Assembly (NCBI GenBank): GCA_036845085.1
Contig: DAIUEN010000008.1
Coordinates: 1-9,687, forward strand
Length of the DNA stretch: 9,687 bases
Direction of reading: 5' to 3'
Source of the DNA: Candidatus Nanopusillus sp.
GTDB lineage: Archaea > Nanobdellota > Nanobdellia > Nanobdellales > Nanobdellaceae
Shown here: piece by piece, positions 4,142 to 9,687 of the stretch
Layout: each line of letters begins with the position of its first letter
Position numbering within the stretch: the first letter of the stretch is position 1
The notes under the pieces: generated by a model
What the model saw: only the letters and a program-made list of their open reading frames with translations
Database searches by the model: none
What the model was told of the DNA's origin: nothing
Position numbers and translations under genes: made by a program

Positions 4142-4620
4142 TGATGAATGAAAATACAAAAAAAGAAGAATTTGTTAGTCTAGATCTAAGAGTTTTACCA
4201 TATTGGAATCTAATAAGAATTGCAAAAATTATTGAAGATAGAGTTCTAAATATAGATAGTACTGAATATTTATTAAGATTAACACATGAAATTCCGAATC
4301 CAGATATAATAAAAAATGAGATTTTAAAAAGATTAAAAAACTTATATTCAATTTCACTTGCAATATTATCAATTTATGGTAGAGAAAAAGAAATATTAAA
4401 GGATTATAAAGAAATTATGAGTATACCTAATATTGATGAAATACTACCTAGAATCTCATATTATACAACTAAAATATTAACAGAATTATATCAATTAATG
4501 AAAGATTTAGGTTTATTACCAAAAGAAAGAGAAAGAGACGAATTAGAAGAGCTTGAAGATTTCTTAAGTACAAAATTATACGAAGAAGATGGAACTACTG
4601 GAGAAACAACTAATAGATAA
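4138..4620 (+). CDS. Helical hypothetical protein with acidic C-terminus
   Basis: 160-aa ORF whose start overlaps the upstream stop (ATGA). Composition is consistent with the neighbouring genes. The C-terminus is RERDELEELEDFLSTKLYEEDGTTGETTNR. No motif recognised. Confidence 0.7.
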   Translation: MMMNENTKKEEFVSLDLRVLPYWNLIRIAKIIEDRVLNIDSTEYLLRLTHEIPNPDIIKNEILKRLKNLYSISLAILSIYGREKEILKDYKEIMSIPNIDEILPRISYYTTKILTELYQLMKDLGLLPKERERDELEELEDFLSTKLYEEDGTTGETTNR

Positions 4621-5422
4621 ATTTTTTAATGTAGAGATTCCAAAAAAATCAGTCTTAGAATTTTTTAAATCAAAATATCCACATATTTTTTTTGCATATT
4701 TAATAAAAAGAACTTTTAGAGAAGATTGGAATCTAGAAATTGTCATTGATGGGAATAAAGGTGTAGGGAAATCTTATTTAGGATTTAAAATATTAGAAAC
4801 TTTTACTTATTTAGATTCAAAAGAAAAATATTCTCAAGACATCATCAAAAAATCTTTTATTGTTCCTTTACCTGTTACATCATTATCAGATAAAGAAGAA
4901 ATAAACTTAATAGTAGAACAAATCAAAGAAGCTTTAGAAGATGATAATATTAAATTGATTGTTTTTGATGAAGCAGGAGATTTATTATTTACTTATGATA
5001 GAATGACAAAAGAAGCGAAATTATTAGTAAAAATATTAAGGAAAGTTAGAAAATATAAAAAATCATTTATATTTATTCATCCGCATATTTTTGAATTAAA
5101 TCCTAATATAAAATATAGATCTTTTAGTTTATGGATACATGGCTTATATAGAGTTTATAATAAATATTCAAGGTTTGTAGTATTAAGAGGTATTGACTAT
5201 AAAAAAGAATTTGTTTATTCTTTGGATCATATAAAGCATGCTTTGGATGTTTATAACATACAAGGTTGGTTTAAAAATAAATATTATTTATTTTCTTTTA
5301 ATTTTAATTATAATCCTGATGATTATTCAAATTATAAAGAATTATTAAGGGAAAAACAACAAGAACTTATCTTATCTAAAGAAACAAAAATTTATGGAGT
5401 AACTATAAGAGAAATTTATTAA
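4589..5422 (+). CDS. P-loop NTPase (candidate virion-assembly, packaging or replication ATPase)
   Basis: Walker A is GNKGVGKS (aa 55-62, nt 4751-4774). Walker B is IKLIVFDEAG (D127/E128, nt 4967-4972). The only in-frame ATG before the P-loop is at 4589, overlapping the upstream gene by 32 nt. It is the last gene of the operon and is followed by T-tracts. Confidence 0.85.
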   Translation: MELLEKQLIDKFFNVEIPKKSVLEFFKSKYPHIFFAYLIKRTFREDWNLEIVIDGNKGVGKSYLGFKILETFTYLDSKEKYSQDIIKKSFIVPLPVTSLSDKEEINLIVEQIKEALEDDNIKLIVFDEAGDLLFTYDRMTKEAKLLVKILRKVRKYKKSFIFIHPHIFELNPNIKYRSFSLWIHGLYRVYNKYSRFVVLRGIDYKKEFVYSLDHIKHALDVYNIQGWFKNKYYLFSFNFNYNPDDYSNYKELLREKQQELILSKETKIYGVTIREIY

Positions 5423-5424
5423 AA

Positions 5425-5450
5425 TTTTTAGTACAACTCAATAATTTTTT
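5425..5450 (+). terminator. Oligo-T tracts downstream of the operon (archaeal-type terminator candidates)
   Basis: T5 at 5425-5429 and T6 at 5445-5450 lie just after the TAA at 5420-5422. Archaeal RNA polymerase terminates at oligo-T. The background is very AT-rich, so specificity is low. Confidence 0.35.
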
Positions 5451-5485
5451 AAATATTAGTGAGTATATTACTCCATTCTCGTGAT

Positions 5486-5495
5486 GCACATGTGC
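5486..5495. repeat. Perfect 10-bp palindrome GCACATGTGC inside a locally GC-rich island (about 5478-5510)
   Basis: Read directly. It is embedded in ctcgtgatGCACATGTGCtacctctgatcgg, which is far more GC-rich than its surroundings. Confidence 0.5.
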
Positions 5496-5555
5496 TACCT
5501 CTGATCGGTAAAAAATAGAAAAGATAATATTTTAAATTATAAATTATAGGGAACA

Positions 5556-5645
5556 CTTTGGGTACCTTTTGGGTACCCATGTCATCAAAAAAATTTTTTT
5601 TTTTGAAAATCGAGGGTAACGAATGGGTACCCAAAGAGTACCCAT
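5556..5645. promoter_or_regulatory. Inverted, helically phased GGGTACC-box array flanking an A7T11 tract (candidate origin of replication or operator)
   Basis: Two perfect 10-bp palindromes TGGGTACCCA sit at 5570-5579 and 5624-5633. Each has a degenerate copy 11 bp further out (TGGGTACCTT at 5559-5568 and AGAGTACCCA at 5635-5644). TTTGGGTACCCAT (5568-5580) is the exact reverse complement of ATGGGTACCCAAA (5623-5635). The spacer contains TCA7T11GA (5585-5606) and a degenerate GGGTAAC (5614-5620). Confidence 0.6.
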
Positions 5646-5734
5646 CCATTAGACTTAACCTAGATAAATTTTTTGTGTCTTTCTGTTGTTACTATTCAAT
5701 ACTAAAACGTTAGTTTTATAAAATATGATGTTCG

Positions 5735-5760
5735 TTGATTATCATTATTGATTATCAATA
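5735..5760. repeat. TTGATTATCA direct repeat (13-bp period) overlapping a 15-bp palindrome
   Basis: TTGATTATCA occurs at 5735-5744 and 5748-5757. TATTGAT-T-ATCAATA at 5746-5760 is a palindrome with perfect 7-bp arms. Confidence 0.5.
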
Positions 5761-5770
5761 TCAAAATTTG

Positions 5771-5814
5771 GAAACCTCACGCGTAGGTGGACGTCCACTC
5801 CTGTATGAGATTTC
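5771..5814. other. GC-rich imperfect inverted repeat or hairpin with a central perfect 12-bp palindrome (candidate structured RNA or protein-binding site)
   Basis: GAAACCTCA (5771-5779) pairs with TGAGATTTC (5806-5814) at 8 of 9 positions. The centre is GTGGACGTCCAC (5787-5798), a perfect palindrome. Local G+C is far above the window background. Confidence 0.45.
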
Positions 5815-6126
5815 AAAAATTGCATTTTTGTTACTTTTTAGTGACAAAATTATCAAAATTTATTCATAAATATATACGATAATTTTAACCATAATTTAGT
5901 GGTGTATGTGTGTCTCTACTGATATATCAAACAATAAAAATAAATAATATATATATTTTCTTTTTTAGAATTTTGTTATAATATAAATATTCCTATTAAT
6001 AATATTATTAATTAGTAATAAAACAAAACTATTACAAAGCTAACATATATTATCACAATATTTCAGATTATTTTTAAATAATAAAAAGACGTTAAATTTT
6101 TAAATTTTAAGGTATAATAATATAAT

Positions 6127-6768
6127 ATGGCACTTGAAAAGATATCAGATCCAAATCCTCAAGAAGCAGAAGGCAAAGATATAGATGAAATAAAGCTAAT
6201 AGAAACGGCCAAGTTTGATCCAAAAGAAGTAAGAGATCTAGTAAATACTTTAAATTCTCGGGGTATAGAACTTCAAAAATTATATCTTAGTTATATATTC
6301 GAAAAGGATCAAAATGAAAAAGAAAGATTAAAACAAGAATTCAACAAAATAAAAGAACAGAATGACAATCTAATAAAAGAACTCGAGCAAAAAAGTAAAG
6401 ATTTTATTAAAGATGCAGAAAATATTATAAAGCATCTCCAAGTATATGAAATATGGTTCAAGAAAGATAAATCTAATAATACCTATGCAATATTATATAG
6501 TAAAATATATAATGATATATTTAATAGGCTGGAAGATTTAGATAATGCATATAAAATATTAGAAAAAGAAAGTATAACAGATTATGCAAAAGAAAAATTT
6601 AGAGAAATTAGAATGAAACTAAAAGAGATTGTTGACGAATTATACAAAATAAAAGATGAAACTGAAAAAATGTATGACCTTGCTTATTTAATAAAAACTA
6701 CTTTAGGTATTAACAAAGCAGAAGGACATATTTTATCTAATCTTGCTAACAAAAGACGCCTTATATAA
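6127..6768 (+). CDS. Alpha-helical, coiled-coil-rich hypothetical protein (213 aa)
   Basis: Clean ORF after the long non-coding interval, with AT-rich TATA-like boxes upstream (tttttaaatttta). K/E/L-rich heptad-like segments (EKERLKQEFNKIKEQNDNLIKELEQKSKDF and KEKFREIRMKLKEIVDELYKIKDETEKMYD). Two T6 tracts follow the stop (6787-6792 and 6799-6804). Confidence 0.8.
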   Translation: MALEKISDPNPQEAEGKDIDEIKLIETAKFDPKEVRDLVNTLNSRGIELQKLYLSYIFEKDQNEKERLKQEFNKIKEQNDNLIKELEQKSKDFIKDAENIIKHLQVYEIWFKKDKSNNTYAILYSKIYNDIFNRLEDLDNAYKILEKESITDYAKEKFREIRMKLKEIVDELYKIKDETEKMYDLAYLIKTTLGINKAEGHILSNLANKRRLI

Positions 6769-6809
6769 TAGTATAATATTTAAATATTTTTTATTTAATT
6801 TTTTATAGC

Positions 6810-7061
6810 ATGTTAAACAATTATCAAAAAGGACGTGCTAAAGAATATCGAATCAAACAAAAATTAAAAAAAGAAGGATATTATACTATTAGAAGTGCAG
6901 GATCACATTCATATTTTGATTTGATTGCAATAAACAAAGAAAAAAAAGAAATATTACTTATACAAGTAAAATCAAATAAAACCAAAAAAATAGAAGAATT
7001 TTATCAAAAATTAAATAATGAGTTTAGTGGACAATACACTGTTAAAGTTGTATTATTGTAA
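6810..7061 (+). CDS. hjc: Minimal archaeal Hjc-type Holliday-junction-resolvase-like PD-(D/E)xK nuclease (83 aa) with QxK in place of ExK
   Basis: YQKGRAKEYRIKQKLKKEGYYTIRSAGSHSYFDLIAINKEKKEILLIQVKS aligns by eye with my recollection of Pyrococcus Hjc ([48 protein letters not shown]). E12, the RSAGS motif, D37 and K54 are conserved. The position of catalytic Glu46 is Gln52 (CAA, 6963-6965). The protein stops about 40 aa short of the roughly 120-140 aa typical of Hjc. Confidence 0.7.
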   Translation: MLNNYQKGRAKEYRIKQKLKKEGYYTIRSAGSHSYFDLIAINKEKKEILLIQVKSNKTKKIEEFYQKLNNEFSGQYTVKVVLL

Positions 7062-7535: not shown

Positions 7536-7790
7536 ATGGCTCAATTGGTTCAGATACCTACAAGCGAAATTTTGTCTAAGCTGAGAGATACAATAAAGAG
7601 CCTAGAAGTATTAGAGAACAGCAGTATGAATATAATTCTTGGCTTTGAGGTTAAAATAACCAAAGTATCACAATATAGGTATTTAGCGAATTTATCAAAA
7701 TTTGAAATAACTGAAAAAGATAAATTAGTTGGAATAAGGATAAAAGATTTATTGATATTCTTAATAAAGAAAAATGAGAGATCCAATTGA
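7536..7790 (+). CDS. Small hypothetical protein (84 aa), first gene of a three-gene overlapping cassette
   Basis: ORF with composition like its neighbours. It overlaps the next gene by 17 nt. The N-terminus QLVQIPTSEILSKLRD is faintly AbrB/SpoVT-like, but I cannot support that call. Confidence 0.65.
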   Translation: MAQLVQIPTSEILSKLRDTIKSLEVLENSSMNIILGFEVKITKVSQYRYLANLSKFEITEKDKLVGIRIKDLLIFLIKKNERSN

Positions 7791-8343
7791 ACAAATAAAA
7801 TTTTATCTAGATCAAGTAAAAGCAGATATACTAGAGCAAATAAAACAAACTAAAAAAGAGATAATAGAATATATTGACAAAAATCTAAATAAAATATCAG
7901 AAACTAAACCAAAAAGAAATTTCAACATCGAAAACTATATTAAAATAACAGATTATTTATTACAATTACACAAAGAAAAACCAACCAAAGCATATTTATA
8001 TAATCAACTAATAAAAGATATAAACAATAAACTAAATATAGAACAAGATGAAATCAAAAATATACTTAATTTATTAATTAAAAAAAGAATATTATTTAAA
8101 ATAGATTCTCCAAATAATGAGGAATTATATATAATATCTAAAAAAATACTGAGATATCAAAATAAAAAATCAAATACTAATCAAGATAATAAAAAACAAG
8201 AAACACAAAGTACTCAAGATCAACAACAAGATCAAAACAAAAATGAAAGTACAGTGAAACCAGCTGAAGTTCTTGATTTATCAGTATCTAAAAAATATGT
8301 TTCTAGACAAGCAGTTGATCAGTATTCTAGAGAAATCTATTAA
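7774..8343 (+). CDS. Hypothetical protein with a possible winged-helix DNA-binding core and a Q/N/K-rich low-complexity region
   Basis: 189-aa ORF. The segment ITDYLLQLHKEKPTKAYLYNQLIKDINNKLNIEQDEIKNILNLLIKKRILFKIDSPNNEELYIIS has a helix-helix-helix-hairpin pattern typical of wHTH domains (inference only). The low-complexity stretch is NKKSNTNQDNKKQETQSTQDQQQDQNKNES. Confidence 0.7.
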   Translation: MRDPIEQIKFYLDQVKADILEQIKQTKKEIIEYIDKNLNKISETKPKRNFNIENYIKITDYLLQLHKEKPTKAYLYNQLIKDINNKLNIEQDEIKNILNLLIKKRILFKIDSPNNEELYIISKKILRYQNKKSNTNQDNKKQETQSTQDQQQDQNKNESTVKPAEVLDLSVSKKYVSRQAVDQYSREIY

Positions 8344-9687
8344 AAGAAGAGAAGATATAGCTGCATTCTATGAATTAGCAAGTTTAGTATCTAATAACAA
8401 AAGCATAGATTTAAAAGAACTAGAAAGATTATTTCAAATTTATATAAAAAGTAAGAATGATACACTATTAAAATTGGAGTTATCAAAATATGGAAAAACT
8501 ACATTTTTTGGAAGGATACAAGCATGGAAAGTAGATATTTCTAGAAAACTAATAATTGTAAGATTGTCAGATAAATTAAGGGCAATAATTCCATTAGATT
8601 TATTTGAATCTTTAGATCCCTACGAAATAATACGAGAATTAGATAACCTAATAGAAATGCAAATAGTACGAAATGGTGGAAATAATCTTGTGATATCACT
8701 AACTACGTATAATATAAATGAAGACAAAAATTCTGCACAAAAAATATTAGAACAAGAACATCCAATTAAAGTTTTAGTAGAAGCATTAGGATTTTACTTT
8801 AATTATAATACATTTAGGGCAAACCTACCGAGAATAATTGCATTATTTAAGGTTCCTGTTGATGTCTATGCATCTTCAGCAATTCATCTACTACAATTTA
8901 CATTACCTGGAACAGGAAAATCAACAACAATGTACAAATTATGGAATATTTTAAATTTAGAGATCATAGGAGGTGGTCTACCATCTCCTGCTAAACTTAT
9001 TTATAATGCACAAACTCATGAAAAAGGATTAGTATATACAAGAGATTATATTATATTAGATGAATTTGATAAAAGTATCAAAAAAGAAAACTATGAATTT
9101 TTTAGTATGATACAATCAGGTATGGCTAATGGAATATGGACAAGAGAAAAATCTACAAAACTTCCATTAGGTAAACTTAAAAAAGATACTACTTTAATAT
9201 TCTTCGGAAATATAGAAGGAAATCTACTTAGAAATACAGAAAACTTTAGAGATTATATTGAAAGATATATACACGGTGTTCTAGAATCGGAAAATATAGC
9301 AAAAGCTTTTACAGATAGAATTTCAATAATCGATTTATATACTGGCAAACCATTAGTAGAATATACACATGATAAAATACCAATAGCTGCCATATTACGA
9401 GGTATCTTTAGAATTTTAGAAGAAAAAGCATATCAAATTGAAGCTCCAAACTTTGATCTAATTGGAAGACAGAGAATTCATGCAAAACAAATATACAAAG
9501 TTATAAGAGCATTAGGAATAGAAGAACCTCTAGCATATGAATTTACTCAAAATTTAGTTACTGGTGATGCTAACATAGAAAATACGTATAAAGAAGTATA
9601 TAAACAGATTACAGGAAAAGATCCTGATTCAGAATCTAATAAAAAATCAGATACATCGGAACTTGTCAAAAAAATAGAGATAAAAGA
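8297..9687 (+). CDS. AAA+ ATPase of the MCM / BrxL(Lon-like) / MoxR clade with an N-terminal domain of about 200 aa; 3' partial (runs off the window); candidate replicative helicase or initiator
   Basis: Not in the supplied track. I translated frame 2 by hand. There is a stop at 8255-8257, the first ATG is at 8297, and no stop follows through 9687 (463 codons). Walker A is LPGTGKST (nt 8906-8926). Walker B is YIILDEFDK (nt 9050-9073), matching the MCM-style DEFDK. The next segment FFSMIQSGMANGIWTREKS resembles the helix-2-insert region. The sensor-1-like motif is TTLIFFGN (N305, nt 9209-9211). The Arg-finger-like motif is AFTDRISIIDL (R341, nt 9317-9319; compare MCM LLSRFDLIF and MoxR LLDRF). 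Confidence 0.85.
   Translation, partial: MFLDKQLISILEKSIKRREDIAAFYELASLVSNNKSIDLKELERLFQIYIKSKNDTLLKLELSKYGKTTFFGRIQAWKVDISRKLIIVRLSDKLRAIIPLDLFESLDPYEIIRELDNLIEMQIVRNGGNNLVISLTTYNINEDKNSAQKILEQEHPIKVLVEALGFYFNYNTFRANLPRIIALFKVPVDVYASSAIHLLQFTLPGTGKSTTMYKLWNILNLEIIGGGLPSPAKLIYNAQTHEKGLVYTRDYIILDEFDKSIKKENYEFFSMIQSGMANGIWTREKSTKLPLGKLKKDTTLIFFGNIEGNLLRNTENFRDYIERYIHGVLESENIAKAFTDRISIIDLYTGKPLVEYTHDKIPIAAILRGIFRILEEKAYQIEAPNFDLIGRQRIHAKQIYKVIRALGIEEPLAYEFTQNLVTGDANIENTYKEVYKQITGKDPDSESNKKSDTSELVKKIEIK

Follow-up and report, generated by a model that had tools for sequence, protein, structure and literature searches.

The 9,687-nt stretch of DNA analysed here (contig DAIUEN010000008.1; hereafter the window) has a GC content of 21–29% throughout, ~24% overall, and almost none of its genes can be annotated. 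Our subject is a gene at 6810–7061 on the forward strand, which opens with an ATG at 6810, closes with a TAA at 7059–7061 and encodes a basic protein of 83 amino acids (9.9 kDa, isoelectric point 9.8), MLNNYQKGRAKEYRIKQKLKKEGYYTIRSAGSHSYFDLIAINKEKKEILLIQVKSNKTKKIEEFYQKLNNEFSGQYTVKVVLL, referred to below as mini-Hjc. No competing open reading frame (ORF) of 40 or more amino acids overlaps 6810–7061 in the ORF list of the window. By sequence and by predicted fold the protein is closest to the Holliday junction resolvase Hjc, and it carries Gln at the position of a catalytic Glu of that enzyme, a replacement fixed throughout a large clade of relatives. The gene and the codons on which the argument turns are as follows.

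6810..7061, + strand: gene for the Q-type mini-Hjc-like putative nuclease (ORF list; Pfam Hjc match above the gathering score; identical protein on three contigs; Hjc as the top Foldseek match).
6843..6845, + strand: GAA codon of E12, the Glu of helix 1, equivalent to E9 of Pyrococcus furiosus (Pfu) Hjc (HMMER alignment to PDB entry 1gef).
6891..6908, + strand: codons 28–33, R28-S-A-G-S-H33, strand 1 and loop, R28 being equivalent to Pfu R25 (alignment to 1gef; conservation in the clade).
6918..6920, + strand: GAT codon of D37, the Asp of strand 2, equivalent to Pfu D33 (alignment to 1gef; invariant).
6963..6971, + strand: codons CAA GTA AAA of Q52-V53-K54, strand 3, equivalent to Pfu E46-V-K48 (read from the sequence; alignment to 1gef).

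The likeness of mini-Hjc to Hjc is far greater than chance would produce. It matched the Pfam family Hjc (PF01870) with 30.4 bits (E 3.9e-7; gathering cut-off 21.1) over positions 3–54 of the 93 in the profile, and PHROG 6591, 'Holliday junction resolvase', at E 3.5e-6. The match to Pfu Hjc (1gef) had an E value of 0.0056 when the single sequence was used and of 1e-10 with a profile of the clade described below, and all five matches of that profile among the PDB sequences were Hjc proteins. HMMER aligned residues 5–58 of mini-Hjc to residues 2–52 of 1gef, pairing E12 with E9, R28-S-A-G-S with R25-S-A-G-S, D37 with D33, Q52 with E46 and K54 with K48, where direct reading of the sequence gives Q52 as CAA (6963–6965) and K54 as AAA (6969–6971). 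The catalytic set E-D-E-K of Hjc is therefore not matched, mini-Hjc having E12/D37/Q52/K54. The motifs of the Hjc/Mrr family given by Aravind (2000), in the form quoted in PMC8805305, are (G/P)x4E (I), hDhh (II) and hhh(E/D/Q)hK (III), and all three can be recognised in mini-Hjc as G8-x3-E12, F-D37-L-I and L-L-I-Q52-V-K54, the spacing of G8-x3-E12 being one residue under the x4 of motif I as quoted. The residues aligned with V24 and V35 of the Pfu dimer are I27 and I39, positions that are hydrophobic across the clade. Judged by its sequence, the window protein falls within the Hjc lineage of the PD-(D/E)XK superfamily and is not an Hjc orthologue, because it scored 26.7 bits against the NCBIfam Hjc equivalog model (NF040854), for which the cut-off is 70.

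Other families gave less. There was no match between the window protein and Mrr_cat (PF04471) even at E<=10, a precomputed Mrr_cat match being found in one distant clade member only (P0213), and no Pfam match to VRR-Nuc (PF08774), to which the likeness is at the level of the fold and was seen in BFVD only. Weak Pfam matches to HicA_toxin (E 0.003), HSDR_N_2 and RicinB fell below threshold and were rejected; SPP1 G44P, considered as a possible relative, is RusA-like and irrelevant. The initial annotation of this DNA had proposed a pared-down, Hjc-like member of the PD-(D/E)XK superfamily whose ExK motif has Gln for Glu, and the Pfam, PDB-sequence and fold searches agree on this; the profile searches place the protein inside the Hjc/PD-(D/E)XK group, the point on which that proposal had been staked. 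Its description of the match to Hjc as running almost motif for motif holds for E12, RSAGS, D37 and xVK, all of which align to 1gef, and was overstated in that R10, essential in Pfu Hjc, is a Tyr.

An AlphaFold2 monomer model built from an alignment of 106 sequences (mean pLDDT 85.4, pTM 0.73) predicts a helix at residues 3–21, strands at 25–28, 38–42 and 47–52, a helix at 59–72 and a strand at 77–82, and stops after this fourth core strand, leaving a minimal core. When the model was compared with the PDB using Foldseek the top five matches were all Hjc, from S. solfataricus (4tkk), P. furiosus (1gef), S. tokodaii (2eo0) and A. fulgidus (2wcz, 2wiz), with probabilities of 0.98–1.00 and TMq values of 0.51–0.62, and other PD-(D/E)XK nucleases ranked after them, so that the modelled protein has a predicted restriction-endonuclease-like fold with Hjc as its closest structural neighbour. 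In BFVD the first-ranked fold was an unnamed viral protein of 102 amino acids (42% identity, TMq 0.75) and the second the putative resolvase of Saccharolobus rod-shaped virus 1 (SSRV1), followed by many VRR-NUC proteins. An earlier AlphaFold2 model, from an alignment of three sequences, gave uninformative Foldseek matches with Hjc only at rank 21 and was replaced by the 106-sequence model.

The architecture of full-length Hjc (~120–145 amino acids, with C-terminal strand(s) and a helix) is not present: the Hjc chains in the PDB have 123–147 residues and mini-Hjc is without their C-terminal third, the part within which Sulfolobus Hjc has its PCNA-binding tail (PMC10956419). The C-terminal shortening described in the initial annotation is thus borne out, at 83 residues against 123 for 1gef and with a model that ends with the strand at 77–82; its equation of this last strand with the AVKF strand of Hjc is supported by the topology and the Foldseek superposition rather than by a residue-level alignment.

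An identical mini-Hjc protein is encoded on three contigs from three samples (JGI 3300022545, JGI 3300025058 and ENA ERZ27245618) that are 99.4–99.9% identical to the window DNA, and the closest homologues, of 84 amino acids and 72% and 67% identity, carry LLIQVK and LLVQVK. A sequencing error at codon 52 was considered and rejected, since three independent assemblies and the homologues carry Q; the reading of Gln52 as CAA aligned to Pfu E46 is sound. In order to follow this residue further, a profile of mini-Hjc and these two homologues was run against 1.84 billion representative proteins, yielding 2461 clusters at E<=1e-3, of which 213 reached E<=1e-10, and conservation was assessed in the best 150 clusters, with lengths mostly of 80–110 amino acids, together with the three profile sequences (153 in all). 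G8, E12, R28, S32 and D37 are invariant in this set (153/153). At position 52, Q occurs in 145 of the 149 aligned sequences, S in two and N in two, and E never; K54 is present in 142 of 150 divergent representatives, whilst Tyr occupies position 13 in 138 and His position 33 in 126 of the 153. Both Q52 and E12 are fixed in the further sets, comprising 106/106 proteins of a 90%-clustered collection, 80/80 IMG/VR loci and 15/15 GTDB genome loci, and H33, where Pfu Hjc has Lys, is found in 79 of the 80 viral loci and in all 15 genome loci. The search profile was made from Q-bearing sequences and so carries a slight bias toward Q, but one profile column cannot account for the total absence of Glu. 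The alignments argue that Gln at position 52 is a genuine and ancient trait of a clade of thousands of proteins; the initial annotation's remark that CAA lies one nucleotide from GAA does not, then, describe a recent change.

We delineate these proteins here, from their aligned sequences, as a large clade within the Hjc lineage, the Q-type mini-Hjc (~83–100 amino acids), with the signature Y-x2-G-R-x2-E-Y ... R-S-A-G-S-H-x3-D ... (I/V)-Q-x-K, every residue of which is present in the window protein. The clade differs systematically from Hjc in Q52, Y13, H33 and the loss of the C-terminal third.

Members of the clade occur in viruses, in cells and on further metagenome contigs. In IMG/VR, 178 stretches encode relatives, of which the best 80 were analysed as loci; many of these lie on small tailed-phage contigs of 10–12.6 kb that encode TerL, portal and HK97-type capsid proteins. 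The TerL start lies within 20 nt of the mini-Hjc stop, or overlaps it, on the same strand in 38 of the 80 loci, and within 300 nt downstream in 50 of them; in locus L040, for example, mini-Hjc occupies 4916–5209 and TerL 5209–6501. The slot directly upstream of TerL is usually taken by a small terminase or an HNH nuclease. Versions of 123–130 amino acids are encoded by Geobacillus phage GBK1, Rossellomorea phage phiT1 and Bacillus phage PK2, with the motifs FIQAK, LIQAK and LVQVK, and are annotated as 'Holliday junction resolvase' in two of the three; the gene adjoins those for DNA polymerase III alpha and a Cas4/PD-(D/E)XK nuclease in GBK1 and phiT1, and lies near DNA polymerase I in PK2. Further members were found on contigs binned to Candidatus Dojkabacteria, of the candidate phyla radiation (CPR), and on other metagenome contigs rich in small unannotated ORFs, individual examples of which also encode a serine recombinase, a tyrosine integrase or a NUMOD3-domain protein. 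In Nitrososphaerota metagenome-assembled genomes (MAGs) the homologue, of 98–105 amino acids in most, sits between translin-like, riboflavin-kinase, thioesterase and YjeF genes (loci L097–L111 of the GTDB set, e.g. L104 2986–3285), and since synteny extends over these 6 kb in eight MAGs obtained in different studies the Nitrososphaerota copy is a cellular one, inherited vertically. It may be that lineage's own cellular junction resolvase. Automated pipelines already name clade members 'Holliday junction resolvase'.

Around the gene in the window three further features bear on its expression and function.

6779..6786, + strand: TTTAAATA, candidate archaeal TATA box, its centre ~27 nt 5' of the mini-Hjc ATG (sequence reading).
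7774..8343, + strand: ORF of 189 amino acids overlapping the start of the ATPase gene, a weakly conserved partner (blastp).
8297..9687, + strand: gene for an AAA+ ATPase of BrxL type, incomplete at the window end, homologue of SIRV2 gp18 (ORF436) (Pfam, tblastn, SIRV2 annotation).

A TTTAWA motif at such a distance from the start codon is expected by chance at 4.5% of window positions, and no Shine–Dalgarno motif is visible 5' of the ATG. The TTTAAATA box together with the lack of a Shine–Dalgarno motif fits an archaeal leaderless promoter, and we infer that the mini-Hjc mRNA is leaderless and transcribed from this candidate TATA box.

The ATPase gene begins 1.2 kb downstream of mini-Hjc. Its product matched Pfam BrxL_ATPase with 52.6 bits, a protein search with it gave at least one match, and tblastn matched it to the rudiviruses SIRV1, SIRV2, SIRV3 and SRV, to other rudiviruses and to two lipothrixviruses, with 25% identity over 82% of its length (E ~5e-15, at best 4e-15); by annotation its SIRV2 counterpart is gp18/ORF436. 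This ATPase is the main link of the element to known archaeal viruses. The gp18 protein is the single-stranded-DNA-annealing component of the gp17–gp19 operon and is implicated in recombination and genome maturation, and rudiviruses process branched, concatemeric replication intermediates with the Hjc-type resolvase Hjr (PMC5062984). The gp18-like ATPase of the window is probably the recombination partner of mini-Hjc in one module. Comparisons of the ORFs of the window and of the sister contig L004 with SIRV2 gp17 and gp19 were not significant, so a complete gp17–19 operon is not established. The 189-amino-acid ORF that overlaps the ATPase start, for which annotation searches assigned no family, is 28–29% identical to the ORF preceding the ATPase in contigs L004, L112 and L113 (blastp, E 1.6e-5 to 3e-4).

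Contigs L004–L006, one of them from sample 3300000084 (record GBSCSSed85C), represent a sister element in which mini-Hjc is 72% and the ATPase ~42% identical to the window copies and the 189-amino-acid ORF is a weak match; mini-Hjc and the ATPase are the only genes at high similarity between the window and L004. A third element (L112/L113, 33.5% GC) has in common with the window the ATPase, the 189-amino-acid partner and the C-terminus of the giant first ORF. An 80-amino-acid protein at 1247–1489 of L113 has weak Pfam histone-fold matches (CBFD_NFYB_HMF, Histone), which hints at archaea as the cells in which these elements replicate. No match was obtained by megablast of the whole window against the genomes of phages and archaeal viruses, by tblastn of the 277-amino-acid ATPase, the large N-terminal ORF and the 298-amino-acid ORF against the same genomes, or by a search of IMG/VR with the 277-amino-acid ATPase. 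On our reading the element would be an archaeal virus or a plasmid borrowing a rudiviral recombination toolkit; its host may, at a guess, be a low-GC hot-spring archaeon such as a nanoarchaeote.

Several other features of the window were recorded. The first ORF (1–1920, + strand) is open from base 1 and extends upstream to at least 798 amino acids (L095 1–2397); it has 23 N-x-S/T sequons where ~10 are expected and a hydrophobic C-terminus, and its C-terminal 127 residues are 50% identical to a DUF2341 protein of 943 amino acids in L113 (1606–4437). A link through the latter to SIRV2 gp39 consists of a common DUF2341 Pfam label (pairwise E 0.62) and was not relied on. A P-loop ATPase of 277 amino acids (4589–5422, + strand) weakly matches PHROG 5484, 'DnaA-like replication initiation protein', at E 1e-6, with Pfam AAA below threshold, and lies just upstream of a gene-free stretch of ~700 nt (5423–6126; features at 5549–5644 and 5757–5828). 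This stretch contains four GGGTACC(C)-type repeats spaced by 11 nt, two inverted pairs flanking an A7/T11 tract, and beyond them a second palindrome, imperfect and GC-rich at its core; the ATPase is a possible initiator and the repeat region could be a replication origin or an operator. The sole Rfam match there, WsnRNA46 in the palindrome (32 bits, gathering score 65), was taken as chance. A 25-nt inverted repeat (2469–2493/7698–7722, 96% complementary, arms 5.2 kb apart and both within ORFs at 2429–2677 and 7536–7790) might mark a recombination site or simply have arisen by chance in AT-rich DNA. At the right end, the independent contigs L001 and L002 stop at the identical base, 9687, just short of the expected end of the ATPase gene, which is either an assembly break (at a repeat or variable region) or a real end of the molecule.

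On balance we lean towards mini-Hjc being an active, dimeric, Mg-dependent resolvase of branched DNA that serves replication and genome maturation. Its 83 residues would comprise the catalytic core only, i.e. helix 1 with E12, strands 1–3 with R28, D37 and Q52-x-K54, helix 2 and strand 4. Two copies would probably dimerise by way of helix 2 and the hydrophobic side of the sheet, in the manner of Hjc and stand-alone VRR-Nuc, presenting two active sites that could nick opposite strands of four-way or otherwise branched DNA in a Mg2+-dependent manner. In each site the Mg2+ would be held by D37, E12 and the side-chain carbonyl of Q52, with K54 and R28 contacting the scissile phosphate, the clade-specific H33 also lying on the phosphate backbone, and H33 and Y13 together standing in for the Lys and Arg of canonical Hjc. 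On this element the enzyme would act with the gp18-like ATPase to convert branched or concatemeric intermediates of replication and recombination into unit genomes; in phage relatives whose gene precedes TerL, this activity would remove branches from the DNA before it is packaged.

Published precedent makes Gln compatible with such catalysis: 'Glu or Gln' was proposed as the motif III metal ligand in the Hjc/Mrr family (Aravind 2000, as quoted in PMC8805305), and BtgZI, a PD-D/EXK variant with Q for E, is a working restriction enzyme (PMC4081073). The small size is likewise compatible with function because stand-alone VRR-Nuc dimers cleave four-way junctions (PMC4103454). That E12, D37, Q52 and K54 are strictly conserved in hundreds of clusters of <50% identity argues for a working active site, and the phage relatives lie in replication modules or directly before TerL, either of which would suit a debranching enzyme. 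Several observations weigh against an active resolvase of this kind. Beside the missed orthology cut-off, only four of the seven residues essential in Pfu Hjc (E9, R10, R25, D33, E46, K48 and K81; PMC10956419) are kept: R25 is retained as R28, but R10 is replaced by Y13 and E46 by Q52, and K81 has no aligned residue in a region that is shortened, the nearest Lys (K79) being two residues earlier and weakly conserved. The literature holds no biochemistry of any Q-type clade member and no E-to-Q Hjc mutant that we could find. DNA binding without nuclease activity was observed for a distant Hjc/UPF0102 homologue whose D-E-K is intact (PMC10140301), so a conserved motif does not guarantee activity. 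For the role in the element, no mini-Hjc was found in the 11 kb available of the third element, and the sequenced part of the element showed neither a capsid gene nor terminal repeats nor hairpin ends.

The main rival to an active resolvase follows from these same residues, namely that mini-Hjc is a nuclease-dead binder of junctions or other DNA, having kept the Hjc fold and DNA surface and lost hydrolysis through the change of Glu to Gln and of R10 to Tyr and the loss of the K81 region, and that it marks or protects branched DNA or brings other factors to it, the gp18-like ATPase or a terminase for example. All three of E46, R10 and K81 differ in mini-Hjc, the UPF0102 homologue offers a precedent for binding without cleavage, and a protein with a pI of 9.8 is strongly basic. 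Against this, inactivated homologues normally let their remaining catalytic residues drift, whereas E12, D37, Q52 and K54 are invariant or nearly so in viral, cellular and CPR contexts alike, and Gln is accepted as a metal ligand at this place in BtgZI and in the family motif as quoted; we therefore regard a dead binder as unlikely, if worth keeping in view. The initial annotation had left three options open, an inactive junction binder, a nuclease with a variant active site and a stripped-down viral resolvase; the last two gain support, because of the SIRV2 gp18-like ATPase next to the gene and the conservation of E12, D37, Q52 and K54, and the first is weakened.

The coupling to TerL, within 20 nt or overlapping in nearly half of the viral loci analysed, could instead mean that the protein is a packaging nuclease which works with the terminase, clearing branches ahead of the motor or making the genome-end cut, rather than taking a direct part in replication or recombination. 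Neither the 9.7-kb window nor the sister contigs have a detectable gene for a terminase, a portal or an HK97-type capsid protein, however; the conserved neighbour here is the gp18-like ATPase, and the homologues of the Bacillus, Geobacillus and Rossellomorea phages stand in a DNA polymerase/Cas4-like module and not beside the terminase, all of which makes this reading improbable for the window protein. Least probable is a restriction, defence or toxin nuclease, i.e. a small Mrr-like or toxin-like PD-(D/E)XK effector forming a defence or addiction module with a BrxL-type ATPase, since what speaks for it (QxK as typical of the Mrr side of the family in the motif as quoted, the Mrr_cat match of the relative P0213, the BrxL models matched by the nearby ATPase and the subthreshold HicA_toxin match) is countered by the lack of any Mrr_cat match for the window protein itself, PADLOC matches that are marginal (~17 bits) and give no credible defence assignment for the nuclease, an ATPase context closer to the rudiviral gp18 operon, Nitrososphaerota homologues amid housekeeping genes at a conserved locus, and no partner antitoxin or methylase seen.

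With an active resolvase as the favoured reading, the singling out of this gene in the initial annotation was justified in that the finding is real and was rightly read; what it presented as peculiar to one protein is the norm of a clade whose members are already labelled resolvases, and the Hjc/Mrr motif, as far as it is quoted, already allows Q, so that the novelty is moderate. What is new is a minimal Q-type clade that fails Hjc orthology, with coupling to TerL in small phages and a syntenic locus in Nitrososphaerota. If the protein is active, a Holliday-junction-type resolvase can be reduced to a bare PD-(D/E)XK core of 83 residues and can run on an E-D-Q-K site, and both points bear on database calls of 'inactive' nuclease homologues. 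The clade comprises thousands of metagenomic proteins and is found in small tailed phages, on CPR-associated contigs and on Nitrososphaerota chromosomes, such that one biochemical study would annotate many genes; the TerL linkage is a lead on how small phages clear branched DNA before packaging; and it is chiefly through mini-Hjc and the SIRV2 gp18-like ATPase that a hot-spring element of 24% GC, otherwise beyond annotation, can be connected to the recombination toolkit of rod-shaped archaeal viruses. As a wider and decidedly speculative proposal, the Q-type mini-Hjc might form a distinct and very widespread class of minimal resolvases with a Gln-ligated metal site, coupled to packaging or maturation machines: translationally to TerL in small tailed phages, as an unrecognised terminase-associated nuclease, to a gp18-type annealing ATPase in this element, and in Nitrososphaerota possibly serving as the cell's own resolvase.

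Among named systems, Hjc (PF01870; Pfu 1gef, S. solfataricus 1hh1/4tkk, A. fulgidus 2wcw) is the best PDB match of mini-Hjc by both sequence and fold, sharing the N-terminal core, the order of motifs, the helix-1 Glu, R-S-A-G-S, the strand-2 Asp and the strand-3 x-V-K. Mini-Hjc differs from it in having Gln for the ExK Glu, Tyr for R10 and His for the Lys after RSAGS, and in its 83 residues compared with 123–143, without the C-terminal strand(s) and helix and without the PCNA-binding tail of Sulfolobus Hjc. The rudiviral Hjr (SIRV2 gp35/ORF121) is a virus-encoded protein of Hjc type that, like mini-Hjc, lies in an element with a gp18-type ATPase, and is 29% identical to mini-Hjc over 59 residues (BLASTP, E 6e-4), although tblastn of mini-Hjc against the phage and archaeal-virus collection did not reach it at E<=1e-3; unlike mini-Hjc it has a canonical IEVK and 121 residues. 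Hjc_15-6 of Thermus phage Tth15-6 (PDB 7bgs/7bnx), the only phage-encoded Hjc of archaeal type for which a structure has been solved and cleavage of junctions demonstrated, has E-SD-EVK, with Glu where mini-Hjc has Gln, and was not retrieved from the PDB by the Q-type profile at E<=0.01.

Stand-alone VRR-Nuc proteins (PF08774) are small dimeric PD-(D/E)XK enzymes of phages and bacteria that resolve Holliday junctions, their cores superposing over 86 C-alpha atoms (PMC4103454), and several are fold neighbours of mini-Hjc in BFVD; they differ in an E-PD-ExK site, an extra conserved Gln elsewhere, an additional C-terminal helix and the lack of a profile match. The Mrr catalytic domain and BtgZI, working nucleases of the same superfamily, resemble mini-Hjc in having Gln at the (D/E) position of motif III, as far as that motif is quoted for Mrr, but are restriction enzymes that depend on sequence or modification and have additional domains. 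The proteins of GBK1, phiT1 and PK2 belong to the same Q-type branch as mini-Hjc, with 42–48% identity over the N-terminal 60 residues, and are distinguished from it by their greater length (123–130 residues), a C-terminal extension and their origin in tailed phages of bacteria.

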